Positions 6,999-28,604 of a DNA stretch of 32,000 nt are shown in pieces. A program made the position numbers and the translations under genes. The notes beneath the pieces are model-generated. The model ran no database searches. It had not been told where the DNA came from and worked only from the letters and a program-made list of their open reading frames with translations. How positions within the stretch are numbered: the first letter of the stretch is position 1; the number at the start of each line of letters is the position of its first letter. Source of the DNA: Candidatus Velamenicoccus archaeovorus (GTDB taxonomy: Bacteria > Omnitrophota > Gorgyraeia > Velamenicoccales > Velamenicoccaceae); assembly GCF_004102945.1 (NCBI RefSeq), contig NZ_CP019384.1:210001-242000 (forward strand), in the 5' to 3' direction.

Positions 6999-7260
6999 TG
7001 CGCTTGTAAGTTTTTCCAGGGTAGGCCGTCGGTCTGGCGCAGCCGGCCAGGACGGCCATAAGGGGGCAGACCTCCGCATTCCACATAGCGGAGGGTCTAA
7101 TCTCGCCAGAGGCGGAAGGATGAAGGAAATAAACGTTGCTCCCCGTGTAAGCATCTTGACAATTTATGCCTGCACCCAGTCCTCGCAGAGCTCGGACGGG
7201 CAGCCATAAATTCTCAAGATACACGTGGAGTTGATTCCGCCAGAGGCGGAATTAAGGAGG
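6999..7260 (+). repeat. Mosaic structured intergenic element, locus E (units E1 ~7001-7133 and E2 ~7134-7260), ending in the porG SD
   Basis: E1 has GCGCTTGTAAGTTTTTCC, a 38-nt GC palindrome (7022-7059) and the CAGACCTCCGC...GCGGAGGGTCTA hairpin. E2 has P1 CTCCCCGTGTA..TCTTGA / TCAAGATACACGTGGAG, P2 AATTTATG/CATAAATT and terminal hairpin ATTCCGCC-agag-GGCGGAAT, followed by TAAGGAGG and ATG 7268. Confidence 0.75.
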
Positions 7261-7267
7261 AATTCAT

Positions 7268-7816
7268 ATGAAGGAGATCAGGATACACGCCAGGGCCGGA
7301 CAAGGGGCTATTACCACCGCCGGCATCCTGGGTTACGCTTATTTTTTGAAAGGCCAGTTTCCCTATGCCTTTCCTCATTTCGGCGCCGCGCGGATGGGCG
7401 CGCCGATGAACGCCTTTGTGCGTATTGACGATAAGCCTGTGCGTTTGAGGAGCCAGGTCTACGAGCCGGATTATCTGATCGTCGTGGATGCGACGCTGAT
7501 GAGAGGATATAATTGCTATGTCGGTTTCAAGGATGACGGCGTCGCGGTGGTGAATGAAAGGGACGGCGTTGAGATCCCCAAACCCAAAGGGAAACAGAAG
7601 CTTTTTATTGTTCCCGGCAACAAGATTTCCATGGATATCATGGGTAAGGCCCTGTTGGGCAATACCGTGCTTTTGGGGGCCTATGCGGCGGCGACGGGTC
7701 AGCTGACGCTTGATGATTTGACAAAGGCCATCCGTGAGCGGTTCGGCGGCAAGGGGCAGAAGGTCGTCGACATGAACGTTGAGGCGCTGAGGCGCGGATT
7801 TGATTTTGTCAAATAA
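7268..7816 (+). CDS. porG: Pyruvate (2-oxoacid):ferredoxin oxidoreductase, gamma subunit
   Basis: 182 aa. IRIHARAGQGAITTAGILGYA...FPHFGAARMGAPMNAFVRI is typical of POR/VOR gamma subunits. SD AAGGAGG lies 7 nt upstream. Confidence 0.85.
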   Translation: MKEIRIHARAGQGAITTAGILGYAYFLKGQFPYAFPHFGAARMGAPMNAFVRIDDKPVRLRSQVYEPDYLIVVDATLMRGYNCYVGFKDDGVAVVNERDGVEIPKPKGKQKLFIVPGNKISMDIMGKALLGNTVLLGAYAAATGQLTLDDLTKAIRERFGGKGQKVVDMNVEALRRGFDFVK

Positions 7817-8055
7817 GGCCATAATTTACAGAGCGATAGCGATGTAAATTATACGGCCGCATTTGACCCAGCACAAATTTTACTGTGTTCTTATTTCAAA
7901 CAAGGAAGGATGGCACGTAAAACAGCAATTATGTTTCTTGTGCCACCATGTGGTAAAATTCGTGCTGGGTTTAATTCGCGGACGTCCCGCAAGAAACCGG
8001 GACTACAGTTTATCTCGTCCTTTGGACTCCATAAACTGTCCGCTCATTAAAGGAG
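7817..8055 (+). repeat. Mosaic structured intergenic element, locus F (porG-porD spacer), ending in the porD SD
   Basis: Hairpin GGCCATAATTTACA...TGTAAATTATACGGCC (7817-7858). P1 GACCCAGCAC (7865-7874) / GTGCTGGGT (7962-7970). P2 AAATTTTAC (7875-7883) / GTAAAATT (7953-7960). A 3' domain is closed by GCGGAC (7977-7982) / GTCCGC (8038-8043), followed by AAAGGAG and ATG 8062. Confidence 0.65.
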
Positions 8056-8061
8056 ATACGC

Positions 8062-8325
8062 ATGAAAGGTCATATGACGTCAAAGCCGGGTTCCAGCGTC
8101 GCCAACAAGACGGGTTCCTGGCGCACGGAAGTCAAGCCGAAGTTTCTCAGGAAGAACTGCATCGCCTGCAGGATGTGCGTGTATATTTGTCCCGAAGGGA
8201 TCATCTCCGGCGAAGGGAAGAACACGTTTGGCTGCGATCTGGATTATTGCAAGGGTTGCGGGAGCTGCGCGGCCATCTGTCCGAAAAAGGATATCGAGAT
8301 GGTTTCTGAGGACGAGAAGATATAG
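8062..8325 (+). CDS. porD: Pyruvate:ferredoxin oxidoreductase, delta subunit (2x[4Fe-4S] ferredoxin-like)
   Basis: 87 aa with two cluster motifs, CIACRMCVYICP and CKGCGSCAAICP. Confidence 0.85.
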   Translation: MKGHMTSKPGSSVANKTGSWRTEVKPKFLRKNCIACRMCVYICPEGIISGEGKNTFGCDLDYCKGCGSCAAICPKKDIEMVSEDEKI

Positions 8326-8376
8326 CCTGTCCCGGCCTTGTTTTGTCGGGGTCTATTTACCAGAGAGGATGTTCAT

Positions 8377-9555
8377 ATGAAAGAGTTTGTAGAAGGTTCC
8401 CATGCGGTAGCAGAGATCATCAAGAGGTGCCGCCCCGGCGTCGTATCGGCGTATCCAATCACGCCGCAGACGCATATCGTTGAGGACCTCGCCCAGATGG
8501 TTTCGAACAAGGAGTTGAACGCGCAGTTCGTCAACGTCGAGAGCGAGCATTCCGCGGCATCCGTGGTCCTCGGCGGCGAAGCCACGGGCGTGCGTTCTTA
8601 TACCGCGACGAGTTCCCAGGGGTTGCTCTTGATGGCCGAGGTCGTTTTTAATATCGCCGGCATGCGTCTGCCCGTCGTCATGACGACGGCCAATCGCGCC
8701 ATTTCAGCTCCGATCAACATCTGGAACGATCAACAGGATGTCATGGTCGTCAGGGATTCCGGATGGGTCTTGTTCTTTGCCGAAAGCATCCAGGAGGCTG
8801 TCGATCTGCACCTCCAGGCTTACAAGCTCGGCGAGGATCCGGATGTCATGCTGCCCGTGATGGTCAATATGGACGGCTTTATTCTCACACACGGCATGGA
8901 GGTTGTGGACATGCCTTCTCAGGAAGAGGTGGACCGGTATCTGCCTGCCTACAAGACGACCTATAAGCTCGATATCGACAATCCCCAGACGATGGGGTAT
9001 CTGGCGGATCCGGATTATTATCTGGAGATCCGCTACATGGTCCAGGAGACACACAGGGAGCTTTTGAGCAAGATCCCCGGGCTCGCCGCCGAGTTCAAGA
9101 AGGCTTTCGGCCGCGAGAGCGGCGGCCTTATCCAGACCTATCGCATGGAAGATGCCGAGCAGGCTTTTGTGGCGGCCGGCTCTGTCTGCGGGACGATCCG
9201 CGACGCGATCGACGAGTTGCGCGCCAAGGGAAAGAAGGTGGGGCTGGTCAAGATAGCCACCTACCGGCCTTTCCCGAAAGATGCGATCGTCGCCAGCCTC
9301 AAGAATGTCAGGGAAGTGGCGGTCGTGGATAAGAGTATTTCTCTGGGAGGTTTCGGTCCTTTTTACACGGATGTGACGTCGGCCTTGTCGTCTTTGGGGA
9401 CGAAGGCCCCCAAGACGAGCGGTTTCGTCCTGGGTCTGGGCGGCCGTGACATCCGGGTCAAGTCTATCCTCGACGTTTATGAGGCGCTGGGCGGCAAGCA
9501 GGTGGATTGCGCCTTTATCGGCTTAAAGCAGGAATTGCTTGCGGAGACGAAATGA
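8377..9555 (+). CDS. porA: Pyruvate:ferredoxin oxidoreductase, alpha subunit
   Basis: MKEFVEGSHAVAEIIKRCRPGVVSAYPITPQTHIVE... is the canonical POR alpha N-terminus. SD AGAGAGGA lies 7 nt before ATG 8377. The track start 8338 adds 13 unsupported residues. Confidence 0.9.
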   Translation: MKEFVEGSHAVAEIIKRCRPGVVSAYPITPQTHIVEDLAQMVSNKELNAQFVNVESEHSAASVVLGGEATGVRSYTATSSQGLLLMAEVVFNIAGMRLPVVMTTANRAISAPINIWNDQQDVMVVRDSGWVLFFAESIQEAVDLHLQAYKLGEDPDVMLPVMVNMDGFILTHGMEVVDMPSQEEVDRYLPAYKTTYKLDIDNPQTMGYLADPDYYLEIRYMVQETHRELLSKIPGLAAEFKKAFGRESGGLIQTYRMEDAEQAFVAAGSVCGTIRDAIDELRAKGKKVGLVKIATYRPFPKDAIVASLKNVREVAVVDKSISLGGFGPFYTDVTSALSSLGTKAPKTSGFVLGLGGRDIRVKSILDVYEALGGKQVDCAFIGLKQELLAETK

Positions 9556-9556
9556 G

Positions 9557-9987
9557 CATTGAACTTTTGCTCGAAACGCTCGAAAATTTCTGCCAAGACT
9601 CGGCCAGCGAAGCTGGCCAGTCGGCAAAAATTTCCTACCTGGCAAAATGGAGTTTTGCCGAGACTCGGGATTAATTTTGTAACCCACGAGGGGTAGGCCT
9701 TCCCCATACCATTAAAGGAAGGGCCTAATTTTGCGCCGCAGAAAGCGGCGCACTGGCCCTTCCGATATGGCCAGGTGTAAGGAAGAGAAACCCTGTTATA
9801 GGCAAAATAAGGAATAAACGTTTATCCCTCGTCTCAACGCTTGTAAATTTTTGCCACGACGGGTCGGCAAAAATTTCCTGCGCAGACTCGGGATTAACCC
9901 CACAAGGGGGTAGACCTGCGCAATACCGAATAAGCGAAGGGTCTAATTTTGTAAGGAAAGGGCCTAATTATAGGCAAAATTAAGGAG
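9557..9987 (+). repeat. Mosaic structured intergenic elements, locus A (tandem units A1 ~9557-9815 and A2 ~9816-9987) between porA and porB
   Basis: A2 has P1 TCCCTCGTCT (9825-9834) / AGACTCGGGA (9884-9893), P2 AAATTTTTGCC (9845-9855) / GGCAAAAATTT (9866-9876), CCCC-ACAA-GGGG (9898-9909), TAGACC (9911-9916) / GGTCTA (9940-9945) and closing ATTTTGT...GGCAAAAT, followed by TAAGGAG (to 9987) and ATG 9995. A1 has the same plan plus extra hairpins. Confidence 0.8.
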
Positions 9988-9994
9988 CTTAACA

Positions 9995-10864
9995 ATGACA
10001 GAGACGTTATTCAAGCCGGGTCATACAGCGTGCGCAGGATGCGGTCAGGCGATCGCGGCGCGCCTGGTCATTGATGCCGCCGGAAAAAACACCATGATCG
10101 CCAACAATACCGGGTGCCTGGAGGTATTCTCGACGAAATACCCGGAATCGGCATGGTGCGTTCCGTGGATCCATTCGCTCTTCGAGAACTGCGCGGCTGT
10201 GGCTTCGGGTGTTGAATCCGGGCTGAAGTATCTGGGTAAGAAAGACGCGATCAACGTGATCGCGCAGGGCGGAGACGGCGGGACGGCCGATATCGGCCTC
10301 CAGGCGCTCTCCGGGATGCTGGAGCGCGGCCACGATGTGCTTTATGTCTGCTATGACAATGAGGCTTACATGAATACGGGGATCCAGCGCAGCGGCTTAA
10401 CGCCGACGACCTCCAACACAACGACAACTCCACCGGGATCCGCTTCTTTCGGCAATCCCCGGCCCAAGAAACCCATGCCGGACATCGCCGCCGCCCACGG
10501 CATCCCCTATGTGGCGACAGCCTCCGTCGGCTATCCTCAGGATATCCAGAAGAAAGTCAAGAAGGCCCTGAGCATCAAAGGGCCGAAATACATCCAGATC
10601 CATGTGCCGTGCCCCCTGGGGTGGAGGCATGAATCTTCCCAGACATCCGAAGTGGCCAAGCTTGCGGTTGAGACAGGGCTTTATCCGATCTTCGAATACG
10701 AGAACGGCCAGCTCGTCCCGCGCAAGATCGCCTCTGTCAAGCCCGTCGAGGAATACCTTAAGATCCAGGGGCGGTTTAAGCATCTTCTCAAGGACGAGAA
10801 AGGCCTCAAGGAAATCCAGGCCGTCGCGGATTACAATATCCGTAAGTACGGCCTCTCCGTTTAA
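9995..10864 (+). CDS. porB: Pyruvate:ferredoxin oxidoreductase, beta subunit (TPP-binding)
   Basis: 289 aa with CAGCG near the N-terminus, GGDGGTADIG and YDNEAYMNTG (TPP motif region). Confidence 0.9.
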   Translation: MTETLFKPGHTACAGCGQAIAARLVIDAAGKNTMIANNTGCLEVFSTKYPESAWCVPWIHSLFENCAAVASGVESGLKYLGKKDAINVIAQGGDGGTADIGLQALSGMLERGHDVLYVCYDNEAYMNTGIQRSGLTPTTSNTTTTPPGSASFGNPRPKKPMPDIAAAHGIPYVATASVGYPQDIQKKVKKALSIKGPKYIQIHVPCPLGWRHESSQTSEVAKLAVETGLYPIFEYENGQLVPRKIASVKPVEEYLKIQGRFKHLLKDEKGLKEIQAVADYNIRKYGLSV

Positions 10865-11017
10865 AGCGCAGGGATAAGAAAAACCTATGCGGCTCCCTGT
10901 TTAAGCGCTTGATGATTTTTTCCAGGGTTCGGCCGGACAGGGCCGGCCAGCCGGGAAAAATTATCAAGCAGACCGGGAGTTGGTTTTGCAGGGCGATGGC
11001 CCGGAAGGGACAAAACC
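10864..11017 (+). repeat. Mosaic structured intergenic element, locus J (porB-rubredoxin spacer)
   Basis: Hairpin AAGCGCAGGGA...TCCCTGTTTAAGCGCTT. P2-like CTTGATGATTTTTTCC (10908-10923) / GGGAAAAATTATCAAG (10953-10968) encloses GGCCGG...CCGGCC. The 5' part GCGCTTGATGATTTTTTCCAGGGTTCGGCCG parallels E1 GCGCTTGTAAGTTTTTCCAGGGTAGGCCG. The closing stem GGTTTTG (10982-10988) / CAAAACC (11011-11017) ends 1 nt before ATG 11019. Confidence 0.6.
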
Positions 11018-11018
11018 A

Positions 11019-11180
11019 ATGGAAAAATGGGAGTGCACCGTTTGCGGCTACATTTACGATCCCGCCAAAGGCGATCCTGACAACGGCGTTGCGCCGGGCA
11101 CAAGGTTTGAAGATATCCCCGACACTTGGGTTTGCCCTGAGTGCGGCGTCCCCAAAGATAATTTCCGCAAACTCGCCTGA
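11019..11180 (+). CDS. Rubredoxin
   Basis: 53 aa, [15 protein letters not shown]...[13 protein letters not shown], with two CxxCG knuckles. The track ORF start 10980 lies in the repeat. Confidence 0.9.
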
Positions 11181-11188
11181 TTTCGCCT

Positions 11189-12247
11189 ATGTCGCAGAGA
11201 ATTCCGACTTCTTCCATCGTCGCCTGGGAGCAGGCAGACGGATTTGGGGCCATGCTGCGGTCTTTGGCTGTTGCCGTCGCTTCATTATTGCTGCGTCCCG
11301 TTGATTTTTTCCGGACACTCAAGAGCGCCGGCGGCGTCCCTGTCCGCCAGAGGGTCATCCGCGCGCTGGTCTTTGCCCTCCTCTTGGGATATCTCAAATT
11401 GGCCTTCGATGTCGCCAACATCTTTTGGCTGAAACATCTTTCGAGCCATGTCATTTCCCCTGAGCTGCGGGCCCAGATGTCGTTTGTCACCTTTTCGGCC
11501 ATGCACTCGCCGTTTTTCGTCCTGCGGCCGCTTTTGGTCCTGGCCGTCACCCTGGTCTTTGTTTCGGCCGGCATCAAGCTTGTCCTTGGGTTCGATAAGT
11601 CCCTCTTTCCGGTTTTTTTCATTGTTTGCTACAAGAGTGCGGCGGACATTTTTTATGCGCTTCCTGTTGTGGGGGGATTGTTTGCGTCGGTCTGGGGTTT
11701 GGCCCTCATTTTGATAGGCGTACGCGAACTCTATGGTGTCCCGGTCTGGCGGGCGGTGACGTCCGCCGTTATCCTGCCGTTTTTACTGATATCATTCCTT
11801 GCGCTTTCCGTCGGGCCGGCCCTGAACCGGACCCTGATCAAGTTCTATCCGGAGCTCCGCAGCCAGGTCATGAGGTTGAACGACATGACCGCTTACATGT
11901 ATACGCTCAGCATCGTTAATGCCGCCAAGACCTATAAACAGGAGCTGGGCTTTTATCCCGTGAACCTCGATGTCTTGAAAAAATATATTTCCAGGTCCGT
12001 TACCGATGATGTAAGCGACCCCAACAACGCCAGCGGCTACGTTTATTCCTACATCAAGCAGGACGAGAGTCATTTTACCGTCCAGGCGTCTCCCGTAAAG
12101 ATGAATGCTTCGGGGCGTTTTGTTTTTTATTCCGACGAGACGGGGCAGGTGCGCTTGGGAGGGCCTTCCGGTGCCGTTATCAGGGATACGCAGGAACTTG
12201 AGATGCATGAGCAGGCGCCGGGGTCGAAAAAAGAAGGTGCATCATGA
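11189..12247 (+). CDS. Membrane protein: Yip1-like multi-TM N-terminal region plus C-terminal pseudopilin-like globular domain
   Basis: 352 aa. The N-terminal part has WE...G...LLLRPVDFFRTL and about five hydrophobic helices (Yip1-domain-like). The C-terminal ~120 aa (NAAKTYKQELGFYPVNLDVLKKYI...DPNNASGYVYSY...FTVQASP) resemble the soluble domain of GspG/type IV pilin-like proteins. ATGA overlap with fprA. Confidence 0.45.
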   Translation: MSQRIPTSSIVAWEQADGFGAMLRSLAVAVASLLLRPVDFFRTLKSAGGVPVRQRVIRALVFALLLGYLKLAFDVANIFWLKHLSSHVISPELRAQMSFVTFSAMHSPFFVLRPLLVLAVTLVFVSAGIKLVLGFDKSLFPVFFIVCYKSAADIFYALPVVGGLFASVWGLALILIGVRELYGVPVWRAVTSAVILPFLLISFLALSVGPALNRTLIKFYPELRSQVMRLNDMTAYMYTLSIVNAAKTYKQELGFYPVNLDVLKKYISRSVTDDVSDPNNASGYVYSYIKQDESHFTVQASPVKMNASGRFVFYSDETGQVRLGGPSGAVIRDTQELEMHEQAPGSKKEGAS

Positions 12248-13431
12248 AAACCGTCGAGCTGAAAAATAAGATTTACTGGGTCGGCGCTGTTGATCATCAC
12301 ATCAGGGATTTTCATGGCTATCGCACGCCTCAGGGAACAAGTTACAACGCTTATCTCATCGTGGATGATAGGCTCACCTTGGTCGACACCGTCAAAAAAG
12401 ATTTCGGGTGCGACCTGTTGCGCCATGTGGCCTCGATCGCAAACCCGGCGAAGATAGATAACCTCATCATCAATCATGTGGAGATGGACCATTCGGGTTC
12501 CATCCTCGAGGTCCTGGCGGCTGCCCCCAAAGCTAAAATCTATTGCACCCCGAAGGGAAAAGAAGGGCTCTTGAGGCATTACGGCATTCGTGACAGGGAA
12601 TTCCATCTGGTGAAAACAGGAGACAGGCTTTCGATAGGCCGCAAGACTCTTTTATTCTTTACGGCCCCTATGGTTCATTGGCCGGACAGCATGTTTACCT
12701 ATTGCGTGGAGGATAAGGTTCTTTTGCCGAATGACGCCTTCGGTCAGCATCTGGGGCATCCTTTGCGTTTCGCCGACGAGATAGGCGAGGATTATTGTAT
12801 GGAGGAGGCCGCCAAGTATTACGGCAATATCCTGATGCCCCTGGGCGACGTCATTGCAAAAAAGCTTGAAGAATTCACGGCATTGCAGCTGCCTATCGAC
12901 ATCATCGGCCCGAGCCATGGCGCCATCTGGCGCAAAAATCCGATGCGCGTCGTTGAGGCTTATGGGCGCTGGACCGCAAGAGAGACCCTTTCCAAGGTCG
13001 TCATTGTTTACGATACAATGTGGGGATCCACGGATAAACTGGCCAGGTCTTTGGCGGAGGAGATCGCCGTCCCGGGCGTGGAGGTGAAGATTTACAACAT
13101 CCGCAGCAGCGATAACAGCCAGATCATCCGCGATGTGCTGGATGCGCGCGTCCTGCTTTTGGGGTCGCCTACTCTCAACGCCGATATGTTCTGGACCATG
13201 GGCGGTTTCCTGACATATCTGCGCGGGCTAAAACCCAGAAACAAGAAAGTAGGGATATTCGGTTCCTACGGCTGGGCCGAGGGTGCATCGCGGCGCATCG
13301 CCGGTGAAGTCGAGGCCATGGGGCTGGAGTCGATCGGTCCTCCGTTCGAAGTTCAGTATGTGCCCTCAGAAGAAGAGTTGAGCAAACTGGCGGATTATGC
13401 TAAAGTGGTAGTCCAAGCGGCCCAAAGATGA
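12244..13431 (+). CDS. fprA: Flavodiiron protein (A-type flavoprotein FprA / rubredoxin:oxygen oxidoreductase)
   Basis: 395 aa. It has a metallo-beta-lactamase-like domain with the diiron motif HVEMDHSG and a C-terminal flavodoxin-like domain (VVIVYDTMWGSTDKLA...). Confidence 0.9.
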   Translation: MKTVELKNKIYWVGAVDHHIRDFHGYRTPQGTSYNAYLIVDDRLTLVDTVKKDFGCDLLRHVASIANPAKIDNLIINHVEMDHSGSILEVLAAAPKAKIYCTPKGKEGLLRHYGIRDREFHLVKTGDRLSIGRKTLLFFTAPMVHWPDSMFTYCVEDKVLLPNDAFGQHLGHPLRFADEIGEDYCMEEAAKYYGNILMPLGDVIAKKLEEFTALQLPIDIIGPSHGAIWRKNPMRVVEAYGRWTARETLSKVVIVYDTMWGSTDKLARSLAEEIAVPGVEVKIYNIRSSDNSQIIRDVLDARVLLLGSPTLNADMFWTMGGFLTYLRGLKPRNKKVGIFGSYGWAEGASRRIAGEVEAMGLESIGPPFEVQYVPSEEELSKLADYAKVVVQAAQR

Positions 13432-13494
13432 GAGGCAAGCAGGTCCGGAGAACTGTAAAAAGAGAACGCTAAAACGGGAAAAAAGGGGGTATCC

Positions 13495-13968: not shown

Positions 13969-14062
13969 GAAAAGAAGGCCCTTCGTTTCCGACTTAAACG
14001 CTGATAGAGACGAGGGGTCGATGTCAGACAAACAAATTCAGCGGGAAATCGAGAGGACAATA

Positions 14063-14245: not shown

Positions 14246-14259
14246 TTTCCGCAAGGACC

Positions 14260-14302
14260 ACACCACCCGTTCTTCTATGAGAGCGGGTGGTGTTTTTGTT
14301 TT
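14260..14302 (+). terminator. Rho-independent terminator of the redox operon
   Basis: Perfect 10-bp stem ACACCACCCG (14260-14269) / CGGGTGGTGT (14284-14293) followed by TTTTTGTTTT. Confidence 0.8.
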
Positions 14303-14338
14303 ATCTCGGCTCGGCCTCCGGCCAGGCCGAGATAAAAC
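14298..14338. other. Second perfect 13-bp hairpin directly after the terminator
   Basis: GTTTTATCTCGGC (14298-14310) / GCCGAGATAAAAC (14326-14338) encloses GGCC-tcc-GGCC. Function unknown. Confidence 0.5.
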
Positions 14339-14401
14339 AATCCACTACCGTTTTGTGGCGGCCGGATGGATCAGGGGCCGAAGGTGAAACAGGGGGCGGT
14401 C

Positions 14402-21189: not shown

Positions 21190-22116
21190 ATGGCCTCCGT
21201 TAATTCTCTTTTACTTTCCTCTCCCGCCAAGCTCAATCTTTATCTTGACGTCCTGGGCCGGCGGCCCGACGGCTACCACGAACTCCTGACTTTTTTTGAA
21301 CGTATCTCTCTTTGCGACACCGTCCGCCTAACGGAGATCCAGACGGACGAGATCGTCTTGTCTTGTGACAGCCGCCTGGTTCCCTCCGATGCTGCTAATT
21401 TGGCGTGGCAGGCTGCCGATCTGCTACGGCGGTCCTTTGGTGTCAAGAAAGGCGTCAAGATCGAAATCCAGAAGCAGATTCCTGTGGGCGGCGGCATGGG
21501 GGGAGGGTCAAGCAATGCCGCTACCGTCCTTTTGGGCATGAACAGGCTTTTCGGGATGCGTCTAAGCCGGCCGGTACTGGTCGATTTGGCCAACCGTCTG
21601 GGCAGCGATGTGGCTTTTTTTGTTTCTGGAAGGCGTTTTGCCATCGGCCGGGGCCGCGGAGGCGATCTGACGGGCGTCTCGATTCCTCCCCGAGTGCGTT
21701 TATGGCACGTTCTTTTTGTTCCGCCGAAGAACATTATGACCAAAGATGTCTATGCGCTCTTTGATAGGGGGTCTCAAAGGAGCAGAACAGGCCGGAATCC
21801 CAGAGAAACTTTAACGTTGACAAAGAATAATGAGAATGTTAATATACTACTCTCTTGTCTTAAAGAGGGAGATCTCCGTTTTCTTAACAGGAAGATTTAC
21901 AATCGGTTAAGCGAAATCGTAATAGAATCATATGGTTTCGTTTCTGAACTAAGAACTGATCTTTCTAAACTCGGGTTCAAATGGCTACACATGTCAGGTA
22001 GCGGGCCGACCCTTTTTGTTGTATGTAAAGACCAAAAATACGCGCAGCGGGTTTATGATAAGGCGCGCGCCAGGCTTTCAGATAAATGCCACGTATTTAT
22101 CGCCGCAACGCTGTAA
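21190..22116 (+). CDS. ispE: 4-diphosphocytidyl-2-C-methyl-D-erythritol kinase
   Basis: PAKLNLYLDVLGRRPDGYHEL and the GHMP kinase motif PVGGGMGGGSSNAA. Confidence 0.9.
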   Translation: MASVNSLLLSSPAKLNLYLDVLGRRPDGYHELLTFFERISLCDTVRLTEIQTDEIVLSCDSRLVPSDAANLAWQAADLLRRSFGVKKGVKIEIQKQIPVGGGMGGGSSNAATVLLGMNRLFGMRLSRPVLVDLANRLGSDVAFFVSGRRFAIGRGRGGDLTGVSIPPRVRLWHVLFVPPKNIMTKDVYALFDRGSQRSRTGRNPRETLTLTKNNENVNILLSCLKEGDLRFLNRKIYNRLSEIVIESYGFVSELRTDLSKLGFKWLHMSGSGPTLFVVCKDQKYAQRVYDKARARLSDKCHVFIAATL

Positions 22117-22158
22117 TTATTGTATTTTTTGGTCGGTTACACAGGGAGGGGACGATCC

Positions 22159-22578
22159 ATGGAAATCACTGAGGTGAGGGTTTTTCTCAAGGATAGTCCT
22201 GACAAGAAACTTAAAGCTTATGCCACGGTGACGTTCGACAACGCTTTCGTCGTCAGGAACATTAAAGTGATCGAGGGGGGCAGCGGCCTTTTTATCGCCA
22301 TGCCTTCTCGAAAGCTCAAGACAGCATGTCCCAAGTGTAATTTTCGCAACGAGGTCCGCAGTAAATATTGCAACCAGTGCGCAACGCAATTGCCGGCTGT
22401 CATGCGGCCGGTGACTGTAGAATCCAATGCGGATGGCGCTCAGTCTGAACACAGGGATATCGCCCATCCGATCACTCAGACCTTCCGGGATTACTTGCAG
22501 AAAAAGGTTTTAGATGCCTTTGAGAGCGAAAAAGCCAAAGGCCCTTCTTCCTTTTCAGGTCACGACAGCGAAGAATGA
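22159..22578 (+). CDS. spoVG: SpoVG-family protein with an internal CxxC...CxxC zinc-ribbon-like insertion
   Basis: MEITEVRVF...KAYATVTFDNAFVVRNIKVIEGGSGLFIAMPSRK ... HRDIAHPI is the SpoVG core. About 45 extra residues (CPKCNFRN...CNQC...) lie between MPSRK and RDIAHPI. SD GGGAGGGG precedes ATG 22159, and the track start is a TTG at 22120. Confidence 0.8.
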   Translation: MEITEVRVFLKDSPDKKLKAYATVTFDNAFVVRNIKVIEGGSGLFIAMPSRKLKTACPKCNFRNEVRSKYCNQCATQLPAVMRPVTVESNADGAQSEHRDIAHPITQTFRDYLQKKVLDAFESEKAKGPSSFSGHDSEE

Positions 22579-22597
22579 GATAGATTTTCTGAGATAT

Positions 22598-22669
22598 TGC
22601 CCGGTGGTGCAACTGGTAGCACATCAGACTTTGGATCTGAGTATCCTGGTTCGAGCCCAGGCTGGGCAG
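22598..22669 (+). tRNA. tRNA-Gln (anticodon UUG)
   Basis: Hand-folded cloverleaf: acceptor TGCCCGG/CTGGGCA (U1:A72), D arm GTGC-AACTGGTA-GCAC, anticodon arm TCAGA-CTTTGGA-TCTGA (TTG at 22631-22633), 4-nt variable loop, T arm CCTGG-TTCGAGC-CCAGG, discriminator G. CCA is not encoded. Confidence 0.85.
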
Positions 22670-22700
22670 TTCGATTATCGGCCTGGCGAGAACCAAAGGG
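22653..22700 (+). repeat. Direct repeat copy 1 (last 17 nt of tRNA-Gln plus 31 nt downstream)
   Basis: GAGCCCAGGCTGGGCAGTTCGATTATCGGCCTGGCGAGAACCAAAGGG matches 22836-22883 at 46 of 48 positions. Confidence 0.85.
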
Positions 22701-22835
22701 GTGCGGGGAGACCGTCCCCGCGCTTTCGGGGTAACAGGAGCGAATCCGCGTAAGCGGATGAGCCCGCCATAGGGGCAGAGCCCCTTTGGGGAGCGGAGTG
22801 GAAACGAAGAGACTGGTTCTAGGCGCGCAGCGCCG

Positions 22836-22883
22836 GAGCCCAGGCTGGGCAGCTTGATTATCGGCCTGGCGAGAACCAAAGGG
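22836..22883 (+). repeat. Direct repeat copy 2 (orphan tRNA-Gln 3' end plus flank)
   Basis: GAGCCCAGGCTGGGCAGCTTGATTATCGGCCTGGCGAGAACCAAAGGG lies 183 bp downstream of copy 1. No complete tRNA can be folded around it. Confidence 0.85.
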
Positions 22884-23231
22884 CGCTGGTCGGTTTCATG
22901 GCCGGCCTGGCGACCTGCCTGCTTTGGCTAAGGCCAAAGGCAGGGAACCAAAATAATATATTGACGCGTCCCCCCGTCGTTCGTTGACGCATTGTCAAGC
23001 GCGGGGGCTTGTACTTCGACAGACTCAGGGTTATGCTCTGAGCAAGTCCACCTTCGGTGGACGCATCGAAGAGTTTGCTAACCACAAGGCCATGGCGTGT
23101 TCCTGCGATCATGCAATCACCGACCTTTTTGTAGGCAACGGATGTTGTCGAGAGGCCGGTGAGCCTTCCGGTTTTTATCAGCAATCACGCGTTTCACGGC
23201 GAAAGAAAATCCCGGGGAATTCCTAAAACTT

Positions 23232-24491
23232 ATGTTAAAGTTGTGCGTTATCGTTTTGGCTGCAGGAGAGGGGAAACGGATGAAGTCCGCCACCCCGAAG
23301 GTCCTGCATGAAGTGGCCTGGCGTCCTATGTTGAGCTTCGTTATGGATGCCGCCGTATCGATGAAGCCCAGAAAGACCGTTGTGGTTTTAAGTCCCAAGA
23401 GGCCTGAGGTTCGCGGCGTCCTCGAGAAGTCCGTGGCTGTTGCGTTCCAGAAAAGTCCTCTCGGCACGGCCGATGCCGTTGCAGCGGCGGTCAAGGAGAT
23501 CCCGAAAGATTCAGGCGACGTCATGGTGCTTTACGGCGATACGCCGCTGATCCGTCCACAGACGGTGCGCCGCCTCTATGAAGCCCATGTGGCGAGCAGC
23601 GCATCCTGCACCGTGTTGACGACATTTTTGAACGATCCGCGGGGTTACGGCAGGGTCTTGCGCAACGATGCGGGTCGCTTTCTGGCGATCGTCGAGGAAA
23701 GAGATGCGACAGTTTCCCAAAAGGCCGTGCGGGAGATCAACACGGGCCTTTATTGTTTTAAAAAAGACGATCTTCTGGAAGGGTTGAAGCATATCAGGCC
23801 CGACAACAGAAGCGGTGAGTATTACCTTACAGACGTCTTGGGTTGGCTTTTTGGTTCCAACAAAAAGGTCGAGACGGTCCTTGCGGAAGATCCTCAGGAA
23901 GTGTTGGGCGTCAATTCGCGCCGGGACCTGCGGGAGGCCTCGGAAGTCCTCCGGATGCGTATCCTGGAATCATTTGAGGAGCGGGGTGTCGTCATCGAGG
24001 ACCCGAAGTCGACCTTTATCGACCCTGCCGCAATGATCGGATCGGGCTCCCGTGTTCGTCCATTCACCTATATCGAAAAAGATGTCGTGATAGGCCGCGA
24101 TTGCTCCATCGGGCCCTTCTGCCATCTGCGTCCCGGGGTTGTCCTCGGCGACCGGGCGGCTGTAGGAAATTTTGCCGAAGTCAAAAATTCGACCCTGGGA
24201 GAAGAAAGCGTCATGCATCACGTGGGATATCTCGGCGATACGGAGGTTGGCCGCAGGGTCAATATCGGGGCCGGCACCGTCGTTGCCAATTTTGACGGTC
24301 AGAAAAAGAGCAAGACCATCATTAAAGACCAGGCTTTTATCGGTAGTGATGCGGTTTTGATTGCGCCAGTGGTCATCGGCAAGAAGGCCGTGGTCGGCGC
24401 CGGAAGCGTCGTGACGCGGCGTCATGATGTTCCGGACCGGGCGGTTGTGGCGGGCGTGCCGGCCCGGGCCCTGAAACCCAAACGTAAATAA
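23232..24491 (+). CDS. glmU: Bifunctional UDP-N-acetylglucosamine pyrophosphorylase / glucosamine-1-phosphate N-acetyltransferase
   Basis: LAAGEGKRMKS nucleotidyltransferase motif, YYLTDV, and a C-terminal left-handed beta-helix of hexapeptide repeats (IGRDCSIGPF..., VGNFAEVKNS..., IGAGTVV...). Confidence 0.9.
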   Translation: MLKLCVIVLAAGEGKRMKSATPKVLHEVAWRPMLSFVMDAAVSMKPRKTVVVLSPKRPEVRGVLEKSVAVAFQKSPLGTADAVAAAVKEIPKDSGDVMVLYGDTPLIRPQTVRRLYEAHVASSASCTVLTTFLNDPRGYGRVLRNDAGRFLAIVEERDATVSQKAVREINTGLYCFKKDDLLEGLKHIRPDNRSGEYYLTDVLGWLFGSNKKVETVLAEDPQEVLGVNSRRDLREASEVLRMRILESFEERGVVIEDPKSTFIDPAAMIGSGSRVRPFTYIEKDVVIGRDCSIGPFCHLRPGVVLGDRAAVGNFAEVKNSTLGEESVMHHVGYLGDTEVGRRVNIGAGTVVANFDGQKKSKTIIKDQAFIGSDAVLIAPVVIGKKAVVGAGSVVTRRHDVPDRAVVAGVPARALKPKRK

Positions 24492-24865
24492 TTTTGATCG
24501 AGCCGCAGAATGCGGCGAAGATCAGACCCTTCCTTTATGTGGAATGAGGAAGGTCTACCCTTTCTGGGTCACCCCGCGAGTATCGGAAAAATTTGGCGCC
24601 CGGCAGCCCTGGGTAAGAAATTTTTCCGATATCTTACGATGCGCAGGTCTCCAGGAAAGAAACCCTGTGCTCATTCTGCTCGAACAGGGCGAGTACAGGG
24701 AGATTCATTGAGGCCATGACTTACGCCTGCCTTTGGTCTTCAGCCAAGGCAGGCAGGGAACCGTCACGTTGCTCCTGGTGACGTAAGTCATATGGCCGAA
24801 TTAATCCGCCGAAGCTTTGGTGGCGGATGGATTTATTTAGGTCGCAGAAGCGGTAATCATAGGAG
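24492..24865 (+). repeat. Mosaic structured intergenic element, locus D (scrambled module order) in the glmU-prs spacer
   Basis: ATTTTG plus GCCGCAGAATGCGGC. AGACCCTTCCT...AGGAAGGTCT. P2-like CGGAAAAATTT (24584-24594) / AAATTTTTCCG (24618-24628). GGAAAGAAACCCTGT. A 14-bp stem GGCCATGACTTACG (24712-24725) / CGTAAGTCATATGGCC (24782-24797). ATCCGCC...GGCGGAT, followed by TAGGAG and ATG 24873. Confidence 0.65.
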
Positions 24866-24872
24866 TCATGAT

Positions 24873-25826
24873 ATGAACAAGCTTGAGATTTTTTCAGGGA
24901 ACGCCAACAAGGGGTTGGCGGAGGAGATCGCCAAGGAGCTGGGCAAGAAGCTTGGCGGCATGATGGTGGAGCGTTTCAGCGAAGGGGAGATCAGGGTCAA
25001 GATTGACGACAATGTCCGGGGCAAAGATGTTTTTGTGATCCAGCCGACCTGCCCGCCGCCCAATGAAAACCTCATGGAGCTTTTGATCATCATCGACGCC
25101 TTGAAGCGCGCCTCCGCCGGGCGCATCACGGCTGTTGTGCCGTATTACGGATATGCCCGCCAGGACCGTAAGGACCAGCCGCGTGTGCCGATTTCAGCTA
25201 AACTTGTGGCGAACCTCCTGACCGTGGCCGGGGCCAGCCGTATTTTGACGATGGATCTCCATGCCGGGCAGATCCAGGGGTTCTTTGATATTCCCTTGGA
25301 TCATCTTTTTGCCGTTAATGTCTTTGTCGAATACATCACCTCAAAGCTCAAGTTGGAGAATTATGTCGTGGTTTCTCCCGATGTCGGCGGCATCAAGACC
25401 GCGCGGGCGTACGCCAAGAGGCTCGGGGTAGGCCTGGCGATCGTGGATAAGCGCCGCATCTCCCCCGAAAAGGCAGAAGCCATGAATATCCTCGGCGAAG
25501 TCGAAGGCAAGAACGCCATCCTGGTGGACGATTTGATTGCGACCGGCGGATCCCTGATCGAGGCCGCGAACGCCTTGAGACGGGCGGGAGTCAAGAAGAT
25601 CTATGCGGCTGTTGTCCACGGTGTTCTTTCCGGAGACGCCGTCAAGAAAATCGAAAGTTCGATCCTCGAGCAGTTGATCATCACCAACACGATCCCGAAG
25701 GATGACCACAAGGCGAGTTCCAAGATCAAGGTCTTGTCCGTCGCGCCCCTCTTGGCGGAGGCCATCAAGCGGATCCACCACGAAGAATCGATCAGCTGTT
25801 TGTTTGATGAGAGATTTGAGATATAA
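24873..25826 (+). CDS. prs: Ribose-phosphate pyrophosphokinase
   Basis: MNKLEIFSGNANKGLAEEIA..., VIPYYGYARQDRK and the PRPP-binding VSPDVGG...ILVDDLIATGGS. SD AGGAG lies 7 nt before ATG 24873. The track start 24792 lies in the repeat. Confidence 0.9.
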   Translation: MNKLEIFSGNANKGLAEEIAKELGKKLGGMMVERFSEGEIRVKIDDNVRGKDVFVIQPTCPPPNENLMELLIIIDALKRASAGRITAVVPYYGYARQDRKDQPRVPISAKLVANLLTVAGASRILTMDLHAGQIQGFFDIPLDHLFAVNVFVEYITSKLKLENYVVVSPDVGGIKTARAYAKRLGVGLAIVDKRRISPEKAEAMNILGEVEGKNAILVDDLIATGGSLIEAANALRRAGVKKIYAAVVHGVLSGDAVKKIESSILEQLIITNTIPKDDHKASSKIKVLSVAPLLAEAIKRIHHEESISCLFDERFEI

Positions 25827-25837
25827 GGGAAGAAATG

Positions 25838-25967
25838 TTGACCCCTCGCTTAAGCACTTGTAAATTTTCTCTCCGGCCGGCTAAACCGGCCTTCAGAAAA
25901 TTTCCTGCGTAAGCTCGGGGTTGATTTTGTAGGGAAAAAGTTACCCATTATAGGCAAAATCAAGGAG
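25838..25967 (+). repeat. Mosaic structured intergenic element, locus B (single short unit) ending in the rplY SD
   Basis: P1 CCCCTCGCTTAAGC (25842-25855) / GCGTAAGCTCGGGG (25907-25920). P2 AAATTTTCT (25862-25870) / AGAAAATTT (25895-25903) encloses GGCCGG-ctaaa-CCGGCC. Closing ATTTTGT (25924-25930) / GGCAAAAT (25953-25960), followed by CAAGGAG and ATG 25977. 25841-25929 matches 28116-28204 at 88 of 89 positions. Confidence 0.85.
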
Positions 25968-25976
25968 AATACGACG

Positions 25977-26669
25977 ATGGAAGCGATTTATCTGGAAGCG
26001 AAGGTGCGGGAAGGCGCCGAGGTCGGCAAGAGCCATATCCTGCGCCGTGGAGGATTTGTGCCGTGCGTTGTTTACGGTGAGGGCAAGAAGACATTGCCTC
26101 TGAAGATCGAGCGGAGCCGTTTGATCAAATTCATGCACGCGCATCACGGCGGCGAAAACATGGTGATCACCCTGAAGATCGCCGGCGGCAAAAAAGACGA
26201 AGAGAAGGCGGTCCTGATCAAAGAGATCCAGAATCACCCGGTCACCAGTGATATTCTCCATGTGGATTTTAACGAGATATCCCTGACGAAGAAGATCACC
26301 GTTCCTGTGCCCATAGAAGCCGTCGGAGAACCTGTAGGCGTCAAGCAGGAAGGCGGGACGCTGGAACACATCATCTGGGAAGTAGAGGTCGAATGTCTGC
26401 CGACCCAGATCCCCGAAAAGTTGACCGTTGATGTCTCCCAGATGAAGATCGGCGATACGATTTATCTGAAGGATGTGTCTTTGCCGTCGGGTGTCGTGAT
26501 CAAGCACGATCTGGATTCCATTGTCTTTTCCTTGTTGGCGCCTCTTAAGGAAGAGGCGGCGCCTGCGGAAGCCGCCGCGGCCGAAGGGGCAGCGGCAACT
26601 GCCGAGCCGGAAGTCATCAAGAAAGAGAAGAAACCTGTCGAGGAAACTGAAGAAACCAAGGGTGCGTAG
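25977..26669 (+). CDS. rplY: 50S ribosomal protein L25 / general stress protein Ctc (long form)
   Basis: 230 aa. The N-terminal REGAEVGKSHILRRGGFVPCVVYG... is L25-like, followed by a Ctc-type C-terminal domain and an acidic/Ala-rich tail. Confidence 0.85.
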   Translation: MEAIYLEAKVREGAEVGKSHILRRGGFVPCVVYGEGKKTLPLKIERSRLIKFMHAHHGGENMVITLKIAGGKKDEEKAVLIKEIQNHPVTSDILHVDFNEISLTKKITVPVPIEAVGEPVGVKQEGGTLEHIIWEVEVECLPTQIPEKLTVDVSQMKIGDTIYLKDVSLPSGVVIKHDLDSIVFSLLAPLKEEAAPAEAAAAEGAAATAEPEVIKKEKKPVEETEETKGA

Positions 26670-26703
26670 AACGGCGATGAGGGCTCAAGGAACCGACGCG
26701 AAG

Positions 26704-27270
26704 ATGATCGTTGGCCTGGGCAATCCGGGTTCCCAATACCGCCTGACAAGGCATAATGCGGGAGCCAGGGCCGTTGAGGCATTGGCGCGCAAGCACGGCT
26801 GGAGACTCAAGAACAGCAGGTTCACCAGAAGCTTGTGGGCAGCGGGTGATCTTTTTGAGGCTAAGATTTATCTGGTTTTGCCGCAAACATATATGAATCT
26901 TTCGGGCGAAGCCGTCGCCGCAGGCCTTAGAAAGAAAAGGTTGAAAACTCGGGACCTGCTTGTGGTTTGTGATGATGTGGCTTTGCCGCTGGGAGAGATG
27001 CGTTTCAAGGTCCGCGGAAGCGCCGGCGGCCACAACGGGCTGAAATCCGTTATCGAACATATCAAGACGGATGAGTTTAACCGTCTGAGATTAGGTGTCG
27101 GCCGCGAAGCACAGGAAGGCGATCTGGCGGATTACGTACTTGCGAAGTTCACCGTCCGTGAGGGGCCGGCCGTCGAGGAAATGACGGCGGCGGCTGTCCG
27201 GGCCATGGAGATGTGGCTGGAAGCCGGCATTGACAGAAGCATGAATTTATTTAACGCAAAGAAGAAATAG
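26704..27270 (+). CDS. pth: Peptidyl-tRNA hydrolase
   Basis: MIVGLGNPGSQYRLTRHNAG..., GGHNGLKS. ATG 26704 is preceded by AAGGA. ATG 26677 is an in-frame alternative, and the track start 26521 lies inside rplY. Confidence 0.9.
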   Translation: MIVGLGNPGSQYRLTRHNAGARAVEALARKHGWRLKNSRFTRSLWAAGDLFEAKIYLVLPQTYMNLSGEAVAAGLRKKRLKTRDLLVVCDDVALPLGEMRFKVRGSAGGHNGLKSVIEHIKTDEFNRLRLGVGREAQEGDLADYVLAKFTVREGPAVEEMTAAAVRAMEMWLEAGIDRSMNLFNAKKK

Positions 27271-27283
27271 GGGGTAAGAAGGT

Positions 27284-27604
27284 ATGAAAAAGTACGAAGC
27301 GATGTTCATCGTCAGACCGGACCTTAAAGAAGAAGACAAAAATGCCGTCCTTAAAGGGATCAAAGACCAGGTTGTCAAGCATCAGGGTACCGTGACCCAG
27401 GACCAGGTGTGGGCGGAACGGCGCAAACTGGCGTACGACCTGTTCCCGATAGGGGGCGGGACCCGCTATAAGGAAGGGCTTTATTATCTGGTCAATTTTG
27501 ATGTGGATCCTTTGGTTGTCAATACGCTGAAGAGCGCCTACGGCCTTAATGAAAACATCCTCAGGTATATCATCCTGAAGATCGACGAGAAAAAAGCCGC
27601 CTAA
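27284..27604 (+). CDS. rpsF: 30S ribosomal protein S6
   Basis: MKKYEAMFIVRPDL...W..R+LAY.I....G.Y pattern, 106 aa. Confidence 0.9.
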   Translation: MKKYEAMFIVRPDLKEEDKNAVLKGIKDQVVKHQGTVTQDQVWAERRKLAYDLFPIGGGTRYKEGLYYLVNFDVDPLVVNTLKSAYGLNENILRYIILKIDEKKAA

Positions 27605-27653
27605 TGCGCGCGGTCGAAGATGAAGTCCGGGTGTCGGGAAAAAAGGAGTCCAT

Positions 27654-28112
27654 ATGGCTAATCTCAACAAGGTTTTTTTGATCGGCAATCTTACCAAAGA
27701 CCCTGAATTGCGCTATACGCCCGGAGGCACGGCGGTCGTCAATCTCAGGATGGCGACAAACCGTCGCTTCAAGGACAAGACAGGCGAGATGAAACAGGAA
27801 GTATGTTTTATCACGGTTGTGGCATGGGACAAGCAGGCGGAGGTCTGCAACCAGTATTTGCGTAAAGGCAGTCCGTTGTTCGTGGAAGGCCGCCTGCAGA
27901 CCCGCAGCTGGGACGGCAACGACGGCAAGAAAAGAAGCGTCGTCGAGGTCAGGGCGGAGCGGATCCAGTTCTTGGGGCAGGCGGGCCAGAAAGGCGAGAC
28001 TGCTGCCGAAGAGCATGTTTCTACGGCTGAAGAAAAACAGGCTGCGCCGGCACTCGGTGCGGATACCGACGACGTTTCCTGGGGTCAGGATGCGGCAGAG
28101 GATGTGAGTTAG
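27654..28112 (+). CDS. ssb: Single-stranded DNA-binding protein
   Basis: MANLNKVFLIGNLTKDPELRYTPGGTAVVNLRMATN... is an OB fold, followed by an acidic C-terminal region. The stop TAG (28110-28112) abuts the repeat element. Confidence 0.9.
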   Translation: MANLNKVFLIGNLTKDPELRYTPGGTAVVNLRMATNRRFKDKTGEMKQEVCFITVVAWDKQAEVCNQYLRKGSPLFVEGRLQTRSWDGNDGKKRSVVEVRAERIQFLGQAGQKGETAAEEHVSTAEEKQAAPALGADTDDVSWGQDAAEDVS

Positions 28113-28604
28113 GAGACCCCTCGCTTAAGCACTTGTAAATTTTCTCTCCGGCCGGCTAAACCGGCCTTCGGAAAATTTCCTGCGTAAGCTCGGGGTTGAT
28201 TTTGCAAGGAAAATTACCCATTATAGGCAAAATTAAGGAATAAGCGTTGACTCCGCACTTGGGCACTTGAAAATTTGTGCCATGGCTAGGCCGTCGGCCT
28301 GGCGCAGCCGGCCAGGACGGCCATCCGGCACAAATTTTCCTGGTCTGCTGAAACAGCAGACCGAGTAAGTGCGGAGTTAACCCCACAAGGGGGTAGGCCT
28401 TCGCATGCCGCAGAAAGCTGCACCCCGCTTTAATAGGATAAGCGGGTGCGTCCCACTGGACGGCATACTGGCTCATCCGATTGAGCCAGGTAATTCCGAA
28501 TAAGCGAAGGGCCTAATTTTGCGCCGCAGAAAGCGGCGCACTGGCCCTTCCGATATGGCCAGGTGTAAGGAATAGAAACCCTGTTATAGGCAAAATTAAG
28601 GAGG
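28113..28604 (+). repeat. Mosaic structured intergenic elements, locus C (tandem units C1 28113-28240 and C2 28241-28604) between ssb and rpsR
   Basis: C1 is nearly identical to locus B. C2 has P1 ACTCCGCACTT (28250-28260) / AAGTGCGGAGT (28367-28377), and P2 GAAAATTTGTGCC (28269-28281) / GGCACAAATTTTC (28327-28339) enclosing the 38-nt GC palindrome (28287-28324). It also has GGTCTGCTG-aaa-CAGCAGACC, CCCC-ACAA-GGGG (28381-28392) and TAGGCCTTCGC (28394-28404) / GCGAAGGGCCTA (28504-28515) with nested hairpins. 28507-28596 matches 9719-9808 at 89 of 90 positions. It ends in TAAGGAGG (to 28604). Confidence 0.85.

Follow-up and report, generated by a model that had tools for sequence, protein, structure and literature searches.

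What are the hairpin-rich sequences that lie between the genes of Candidatus Velamenicoccus archaeovorus in a 32,000-nt stretch of its genome (NZ_CP019384.1, 210,001–242,000; hereafter the window, from whose first letter all window coordinates are counted), and what do they do for the genes that follow them? A sequence-only reading had described at least ten such units at seven loci between positions 6999 and 28604, built on a long outer stem (P1), an inner stem (P2) and a closing, or clamp, stem. It had them in strict orientation with the genes and donating a Shine-Dalgarno (SD) sequence to the downstream gene. We find that the repeats are a genuine, previously uncatalogued modular hairpin family of uncultivated Omnitrophota that fills gaps between housekeeping genes, and that the ribosome-binding site of the downstream gene is usually supplied by the repeat. 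The family resembles known bacterial intergenic repeats and is not a novel kind of system.

Detection and fold of the repeat family

The window genome is of the Omnitrophota type. Its identity to related metagenome-assembled genomes (MAGs) is ∼93% for CAYYFL01, ∼86% for CAZAYJ01 and ∼75% for JBLMXZ01; UBA6210 and CAYYFL01 are 87.5% identical. Two direct repeats of 96–99 nt, each 97% identical, connect units within the window: 25840–25938 with 28115–28213 (units B and C1) and 9713–9808 with 28501–28596 (units A1 and C2). The sequence TTATAGGCAAAAT occurs five times, always on the + strand, against 0.62 occurrences expected. When one genome per species was scanned, the clamp-hairpin pattern had multi-copy matches in six MAGs only, which go under the label Candidatus Omnitrophica/Omnitrophota or, wrongly, under 'Planctomycetia' or 'Deltaproteobacteria'. 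Each carries 10–15 exact clamp matches, a low copy number.

A covariance model, R1, was built from 13 simple units of five genomes. In the window it found six units (B, C1, A2, J, E2 and C2). At E < 1e-9 it found 39 in Omnitrophota MAG loci totalling 301 kb (8-kb loci around pattern matches), and ∼39 more in metagenome contigs, which had been retrieved with a P2 pattern excluding the SD and were thus ascertained independently of it. L numbers below denote loci of these two sets; L043 belongs to CAYYFL01 and L053 to JBLMXZ01. R1 had no match in 253 kb of control loci, unrelated sequences sharing the 19-mer by chance, and none in viral contigs, where the clamp pattern matched once, by chance. 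Of the at least ten units at seven loci counted before, six are demonstrable with R1 and two, A1 and E1, are truncated; F and D went undetected. At the gathering threshold of Rfam 15 only a tRNA matched, and in E-value mode the best hit in both element-rich regions was E 0.3, to unrelated snoRNA and miRNA models. Literature searches on Omnitrophica repeats returned nothing relevant and those on SD-bearing repeats in general nothing specific; two reviews of MITEs, the miniature transposable elements with inverted repeats, do not mention SD donation.

In the RNAalifold consensus, P1 has an internal loop of pyrimidines that breaks the stem; P2, with its AAATTT core, and the closing clamp stem TTRATTTTG...CAAAATYAA complete the fold. 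The interrupted stem is 25–30 bp long and its internal loops are conserved; its 5′ P1 arm is fixed in length and the 3′ arm tolerates insertions and deletions. The P1/P2 core measures 80–130 nt. The inverted-repeat arms of P1 stand at the 5′ end and in the middle of the unit, which extends 40–250 nt past the 3′ arm, so that these arms are not terminal. Most copies of the optional hairpins MT and MR begin with GTAG(G/A)CC, the MT of unit E1 reading GCAGACC; the P1/P2 core begins otherwise.

This shared plan, with its compensatory changes, was borne out. P1, P2 and the closing stem all covary. In a MAFFT alignment of the 13 simple units that was not fitted to structure, 11 of 31 pairs show compensatory change. 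A 39-unit alignment has 95.5% of its cells paired and double changes in 25 of 31 pairs, against 35–55% paired in controls whose partners were slid by 1–3 columns; since this alignment was fitted to the model, its figures lean towards the structure. Unambiguous single covarying pairs are UA 17/CG 16/GC 2, CG 22/UA 15 and AU 19/GC 13. The covariation of the TAGRCC hairpin (TAGACC/GGTCTA against TAGGCC/GGCCTA), also pointed out earlier, is visible in the sequence itself. G-U pairs exceed A-C pairs, 52 to 16, or 32 to 15 without one constant pair.

The covariation shows selection, or templated correction, for a hairpin; whether RNA or DNA forms it is not specified by covariation. Stability of the sense against the antisense RNA was tried as a test for RNA-level selection, and the sense strand was the stabler in only 14 of 39 units (mean difference +0.5 kcal/mol). 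Compensatory change had been taken as a pointer to function at the RNA level, but covariation alone is not proof of it, because palindromes of the REP and MITE types keep their stems too.

Other identities for the units were tried. Small open reading frames (ORFs) or leader peptides were rejected: no frame is conserved, every frame is broken by stops, and the lengths of the indels are not divisible by three. A CsrA-type twin-GGA site was rejected as the GGA in the loop is not conserved, and an integron attC site as the GTTRRRY core is absent and the genes are housekeeping. An extended −10 promoter (TGnAAATTT) was weakened by the finding that CTTG is not invariant, reading CTCG or otherwise in ∼18 of 38 units.

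Shine-Dalgarno donation and probable exchange of cassettes

The clearest view of what a unit brings comes from the pth–rpsF junction. In the window it is an empty site, as comparison with sister genomes indicated: a 13-nt spacer on the + strand (27271–27283; TAG-GGGGTAAGAAGGT-ATG) with its own SD. The same junction holds 336 nt of units in CAYYFL01 and ∼215 nt in CAZAYJ01. These units span the stop codon to ...GGCAAAATTAAGGAGGTTATT...ATG, and the sister-genome rpsF cassettes terminate in TTAAGGAGGTTATT...ATG. The cassette therefore replaces the whole spacer, including its SD. SD donation is real, as the sequence-only reading had held.

Its further statement that a start codon follows the SD by 6–11 nt holds for E2, F, A2, B and C. 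Unit J has no (T)AAGGAG, its start codon standing directly after the closing stem. The SD behind D (ATAGGAGTC; ATAGGAG) is also present in CAZAYJ01, which is without the 336-nt insert; it is thus native, and D donates none. Beyond the window, 6–7 copies have the ATG within the repeat, at TTAATG (before PheT, a GlmS-like gene and others); elsewhere it usually lies 6–11 nt past the repeat.

The start codon occupies the usual place of the SD (clamp stem ...TTAATG) in L013 1701–1830, L063 1700–1829, L133 3922–4042, L160 3079–3244, L185 2099–2219, L121 2227–2363 and L129 451–564. The sole SD-like run in such copies is a purine-rich stretch of the clamp loop ∼30 nt upstream.

By Pfam, the genes downstream of units encode ribosomal proteins S18, L25, L19, S16 and S6, EF-Ts, PheT, PurB, ClpP, an ACP-like protein, FabG, GlnA, Amt, HtpX, ferredoxin, flavodoxin, rubredoxin and POR subunits. 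Most are housekeeping genes, and many belong to kinds that are typically expressed at a high level.

Comparison of orthologous junctions revealed gain and loss of units, the junctions differing by whole modules. The porA–porB spacer is ∼440 nt in the window, 218 nt in CAYYFL01 and ∼100 nt in CAZAYJ01. Three congeneric genomes have three different cassettes between porG and porD, the two of the sister genomes being canonical and that of the window being F. C1 is present in the window and in the more distant CAZAYJ01 but absent from the closer CAYYFL01.

Units also resemble each other across loci. In CAYYFL01, the rpsF and rpsR leaders share a ∼300-nt tract of 100% identity (L043 3358–3650 and 4553–4850), which starts within a P2 loop, the two units being diverged otherwise, and runs just to the end of GGAGGTTA, the SD. 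Because the boundaries of the tract lie inside the P2 loop and after the SD, it argues for gene conversion between homologous leaders rather than an element with fixed ends. The complete identity of the two L043 leaders points to a conversion, or a duplication, of very recent date.

Some orthologous units, in turn, diverge little: 0.053 for B, 0.046 for C1 and 0.04 for the 5′ part of C2, against 0.10–0.52 at four-fold sites. For B and its CAYYFL01 ortholog alone, the 5.3% compares with 10–30% at four-fold sites. The 5′ part of A2 diverges more, 0.31 against ∼0.15 at four-fold sites, an excess from which we infer that it has been replaced.

A TTGA...TTGA target-site duplication was considered and rejected, as in most units the two tetranucleotides flanking P1 (TTGA/TTAA-like) are unlike each other, and the one on the right covaries with the clamp stem instead. 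One of the possibilities raised earlier, a mobile element directed at ribosome-binding sites, found no support: target-site duplications are not consistent, and the one clear recent event has the look of a conversion tract. Judged from these sequence comparisons, the spread of the family looks like gene conversion or cassette replacement, and not like transposition with terminal inverted repeats and target-site duplications.

Orientation and the units of the window

The claim of strict orientation stood for the window genome, whose units are co-oriented with their genes, and failed outside the genus. With a codon-based gene caller, ∼120 core, 3′-arm or clamp module matches in the genome loci (∼60 independent units) included not one whose downstream gene ran the opposite way, and no core-module match lay between convergent genes in these loci; the optional hairpins occur in both orientations. 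Each genome locus has >90% of its genes on one strand, and no locus has core units on both. This strand bias confounds orientation to transcription with orientation to replication. Among the metagenome units, ∼28 are in sense with an SD and a long ORF, and ∼9 of ∼39 are reversed, opposite to both genes and GC skew. The orientation lock is thus a strong bias in the genus and not a rule.

Reversed copies lie only a few nucleotides from the 3′ ends of genes for tRNA (L167 1276–1455, L155 11797–12084, L081 742–916 and L158 1212–1457), 5S rRNA (L137 6103–6345) or 6S RNA (L150 6873–7131) or, in L108 (701–980 and 1849–2240), shortly downstream of the aptamers of TPP and cobalamin riboswitches. In L079 a sense unit lies between smpB and tmRNA, ending 4 nt before the latter. 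In every case the P1/P2 core lies in a spacer that is probably transcribed. L079 offers a further arrangement (5004–6763): smpB, the sense unit, tmRNA (5775–6179), an ORF with weak LAGLIDADG matches (5145–5642) and an opposite unit (5004–5125), so that two inverted units bracket the tmRNA and the endonuclease-like ORF.

Pfam identified fur, porG, porD, porA, porB, rubredoxin, glmU, prs, rplY, ssb and rpsR in the window and thereby confirmed the gene context reported before; the + strand holds nearly all window genes. Except for D, to which no strand was assigned, the features described next are on this strand. Downstream of fur (Pfam match), a terminator-like hairpin followed by six consecutive T (6882–6907) and a sigma70-like promoter, TTGATT-17-TATAAT (6930–6958; 10/12 match), precede E, which accordingly belongs to the por operon's 5′ leader. 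E1 (6975–7128; nhmmer module matches and sequence) is a degenerate or truncated unit without the 3′ half. It contains the P1/P2 5′ half (6987–7014), the GTAG hairpin MR (7020–7059) and the GCAGACC hairpin MT (7056–7105), and closes with a small clamp hairpin terminating in GGATGAAGGAA. E2 (7130–7258; R1 46.3 bits, E 1e-7) is a full unit and belongs to the CTTGACAATTTATG subtype. Its clamp, TTGATTCCGCC-AGA-GGCGGAATTAA, is followed by GGAGG and the porG start at 7268, and its CAZAYJ01 ortholog has the covarying clamp ATTTTG/CAAAAT. The porG–porD spacer F (7817–8061) is rich in hairpins (minimum free energy −91 kcal/mol) and its layout resembles the family plan, with a long stem, AAATTTTAC/GTAAAATT, TTAA, a clamp and TTAAAGGAG; R1 had no match to it at E < 1, so F was not detected as a family member.

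A1 (9557–9813) has no P1 5′ arm and matches R1 weakly (16.8 bits at 9694–9813). Its MT module (9678–9733) is followed by the MG module GCCGC-AGAAA-GCGGC (9734–9795) and a clamp (9776–9808) that terminates in AAGGAA without a start codon. The full unit A2 (9816–9986; R1 72.7 bits, reported also as 73) comprises P1, P2, CCCC-ACAA-GGGG, a GTAGACC hairpin, the clamp and TAAGGAG, and porB starts at 9995. On its minus strand (9967–9995) the clamp loop reads TATAAT, giving with TTGTTA a 10/12 sigma70-like match directed antisense into A2, probably by chance. J (10884–11022; R1 58.6 bits, E 2e-10) is also full; its clamp, GGTTTTG...CAAAACC with GGAAGGG in the loop, adjoins the ATG of the rubredoxin gene (11019; Pfam).

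D (24492–24872) is a composite hairpin insert between glmU and prs and not an R1 unit, the model having no match there. It contains a CCC-loop-GGG and the GTAGRCC (MT) module in reverse, on the minus strand at 24518–24569, which is a further departure from strict orientation; its CAYYFL01 ortholog has three reversed tandem copies. B (25833–25966; R1 120 bits) is a canonical simple unit of P1, P2, clamp and CAAGGAG, with the rplY start at 25977, and holds a promoter-like TTGACC-17-TAAATT. C1 (28108–28239; R1 118.5 bits), likewise canonical and 97% identical to B, terminates in TTAAGGAA without a start codon. Behind it, C2 (28242–28602; R1 38 bits at 28242–28391) carries nested modules: MR in the P2 loop (28286–28325), an extra GGTCTGCTG-AAA-CAGCAGACC hairpin, CCCC-ACAA-GGGG, a long GTAGGCC hairpin, MG (28522–28583) and the clamp (28564–28602), then GGAGG and the rpsR start at 28616.

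Three other features of the window were noted. A second, unrelated repeated leader (3513–3577 and 13998–14062; 77% identical over 65 nt), with a hairpin ACGCTGA...TCAGCG and then GAGAGG, is found before two genes, one glutaredoxin-like and one for ferredoxin; in JBLMXZ01 (L053) a canonical unit takes its place before the ferredoxin ortholog. A tRNA (22598–22669) has its last 17 nt repeated, together with 31 nt downstream, 183 nt on (22653–22700 against 22836–22883, 96%), and this repeat (22598–22883) resembles a scar left by the integration or excision of an element. At 14296–14340, a perfect 21-nt inverted repeat between an A tract and a T tract has the look of a bidirectional intrinsic terminator.

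Related repeats and possible roles

The nearest known kind is that of the Neisseria REP2 and Borrelia IR repeats. The sequence-only reading, which recognised no known family, was right as far as Rfam goes but did not name this kind (PMC3184786). REP2 and Borrelia IR-A/IR-B are interspersed repeats of 120–150 nt in tens of copies, without transposon-type terminal inverted repeats; they form two internal stem-loops, lie in fixed orientation directly upstream of ORFs and carry the ribosome-binding site with part of the 5′ untranslated region (UTR) (PMC3184786). The present units likewise stand directly upstream of ORFs, in fixed orientation and with the ribosome-binding site within, the exceptions being tandem internal units and the ∼9 reversed copies. 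However, REP2 has a documented promoter and ATG, whereas here the promoter is a consensus match only and the ATG is usually the gene's own. Unlike REP2, the present units also occur inside operons, in tandem and reversed, are mosaic with optional hairpins and show much compensatory change. The two are unrelated in sequence and belong to different phyla.

BIMEs, REPINs, Correia, ERIC and MIRU are further relatives in behaviour. The family shares with REP/BIME elements an extragenic location and mosaic imperfect palindromes in presumably co-transcribed intercistronic regions, and with RAYT-associated REPs the GTAG start of most optional hairpins and vertical persistence (PMC3116915, PMC3337134). 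It differs from REP in its 80–130 nt core (REP, 20–40 nt), strong sense bias and SD end, and from REPINs in that units of the Omnitrophota genome loci are single or in direct tandem and not inverted doublets. Correia and ERIC are also hairpin-forming intergenic repeats; they are co-transcribed, can create promoters, are substrates of RNase III or RNase E and affect neighbours depending on orientation (PMC2649163, PMC2229807). Correia CREE has 26-bp terminal inverted repeats and a TA target duplication, whereas no target duplication or fixed ends were found here. MIRUs are orientation-locked intercistronic operon repeats that form part of polycistronic mRNA and vary in their presence among relatives (PMC3184786). 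Their small ORFs overlap the flanking stop and start codons for translational coupling, whereas no ORF is conserved in the Omnitrophota units, which provide an SD behind a hairpin instead. The tests made did not place the family among REPINs, MITEs or MIRUs.

We tentatively favour an account in which the units are interspersed, recombining cassettes of transcribed spacers, a modular hairpin family of the REP2/BIME kind; each cassette would fold on itself and deliver a strong SD clamped by a hairpin. A full cassette would replace the whole stop-to-start spacer, or the 5′ leader, of a housekeeping gene. Its parts would be the long hairpin of P1/P2, optional further hairpins (GTAG-type and GNRA-like) lodged in loops and junctions, and a terminal clamp hairpin with flanking TTRA...TYAA that ends directly at GGAG(G). 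Local hairpins would lock every upstream nucleotide and leave the strong SD single-stranded, so that translation of the downstream gene could start independently even behind a spacer of 130–500 nt. Gene conversion or cassette replacement, and not cut-and-paste, would be the main means by which copies stay alike and pass from locus to locus. The sense bias would arise because only the sense orientation restores a ribosome-binding site. In line with this account, SD:anti-SD duplexes in the window are stronger at cassette-fed genes (−9.4 against −4.4 kcal/mol at others, p = 7e-4), although the non-cassette starts in this comparison are simple ORF calls. The SD is unpaired with a probability of 0.53 after natural units and 0.32 after shuffled upstream sequence (p = 3e-7), although any hairpin-rich upstream sequence would give this gain.

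Besides these two qualifications, several points weigh against such cassettes. CTYG-AAATTT and the clamp loop are strongly conserved across genera, for which insulation alone does not account. Several copies fuse the ATG to the clamp and have no SD. Among the units found independently of the SD, ∼9 of ∼39 are reversed and one sense unit precedes tmRNA, so that the P1/P2 core exists apart from SD donation. Conversion is argued from one clear tract, and transcription, use of the SD and any benefit are read from sequence.

RNase III is specific for double strands, and its sites are known in intercistronic regions of phage T7. P1/P2 could be a processing or stability site of this type that separates co-transcribed genes or RNAs, the clamp protecting the new 5′ end beside the SD; we consider this unlikely. 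The interrupted stem with its conserved internal loops fits, as does the predicted confinement of units to transcribed spacers. A structure-specific site would work in both orientations, and reversed copies do lie between a tRNA, 5S rRNA, 6S RNA or riboswitch and the next gene, as a sense copy does between smpB and tmRNA; RNase III cuts or protects Correia elements (PMC2649163). However, an orientation-free role leaves the strong sense bias in the genus unexplained, as well as the 97–100% identity of paralogous copies, and porA and porB, subunits of one enzyme, gain nothing obvious from uncoupling. That the unit is a portable expression cassette like REP2, with a promoter, a structured 5′ UTR and a ribosome-binding site, appears quite unlikely. 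Its promoter would be TTGAC-17-TAAATT, overlapping the 5′ arms of P1/P2, and in read-through RNA the full hairpin plus UUGAUUUUG might attenuate transcription from upstream. Promoter-like matches, present in B and C2 only, terminator-like signals of a lax scan where the P1 3′ arm meets TTGATTTTG, the precedents of REP2 and Borrelia IR, the sigma70-like por promoter of the window organism, the fixed 5′ and indel-tolerant 3′ arm, and downstream genes that include tmRNA and many typically highly expressed genes all suit this proposal. However, conservation of the −35 hexamer is poor beyond the genus and among array-first units, the extended −10 is not conserved, and L034 has a hairpin inserted in the promoter 'spacer'. 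E1 and E2, moreover, already lie downstream of a good canonical promoter. The U tract behind the P1 3′ arm has only four consecutive T, against six after the fur hairpin, and the units lie inside operons; termination between porA and porB would be harmful.

A selfish origin, as a non-autonomous single-strand-hairpin element of the REP/REPIN-RAYT or IS200/IS605-PATE type, recognised by an HUH transposase and surviving insertion owing to its SD, seems improbable. Presence and absence of units between genomes 86–94% identical, paralogs 97–100% identical, a core conserved across genera and units adjoining tRNA genes would all be expected of it. The optional hairpins, which occur in both orientations, also mostly start with GTAG(G/A)CC, which holds the hallmark REP tetranucleotide, and vertical inheritance maintains REPINs (PMC3116915). 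Against this stand the lack of inverted doublets of units and of any consistent target duplication or fixed target, the low copy number, and the best-resolved recent event, which is bounded inside homologous sequence; no transposase lies beside any unit in the loci examined, among which no systematic search was made. Finally, the units might form a cis-regulatory RNA regulon in which the unpaired CUYG/AAAUUU junction, the purine-rich clamp loop and UUAUAGG bind one global protein or small ligand, which we judge highly improbable. Conservation of loops and junctions beyond the needs of pairing, many copies before functionally coherent genes and the excess of G-U over A-C pairs speak for such a regulon. 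The conservation of the clamp is inflated, though, because the loci were ascertained with the clamp sequence itself. E2, J, L051 and L030 have alternative clamps with unrelated stems and loops, the GGA in the loop is not conserved, and reversed copies and tandem units without a following gene occur; nor does the sense RNA have a stability advantage.

Whichever account applies, the finding is that an uncultivated phylum carries a structured repeat, conserved across genera, that writes the ribosome-binding sites of core genes, including those for ribosomal proteins, EF-Ts, ClpP and pyruvate:ferredoxin oxidoreductase. It is a clean natural case of leader cassettes swapped whole between loci and close relatives, and bears on how intergenic repeats persist, on how operon-internal translation stays independent of upstream structure, and on how gene callers and RNA-motif scans handle such spacers in MAGs; the R1 model can now be used to annotate the family. 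On a broader proposal, which we think unlikely, the P1/P2 core would be an RNA or single-strand module for a dedicated host factor (a nuclease, an HUH enzyme or an RNA-binding protein), and the cassettes a self-propagating system of 'expression punctuation'. If true, this system would set the processing, stability and translation initiation of ribosomal-protein, tRNA, tmRNA, 6S and energy-metabolism transcripts throughout the lineage.

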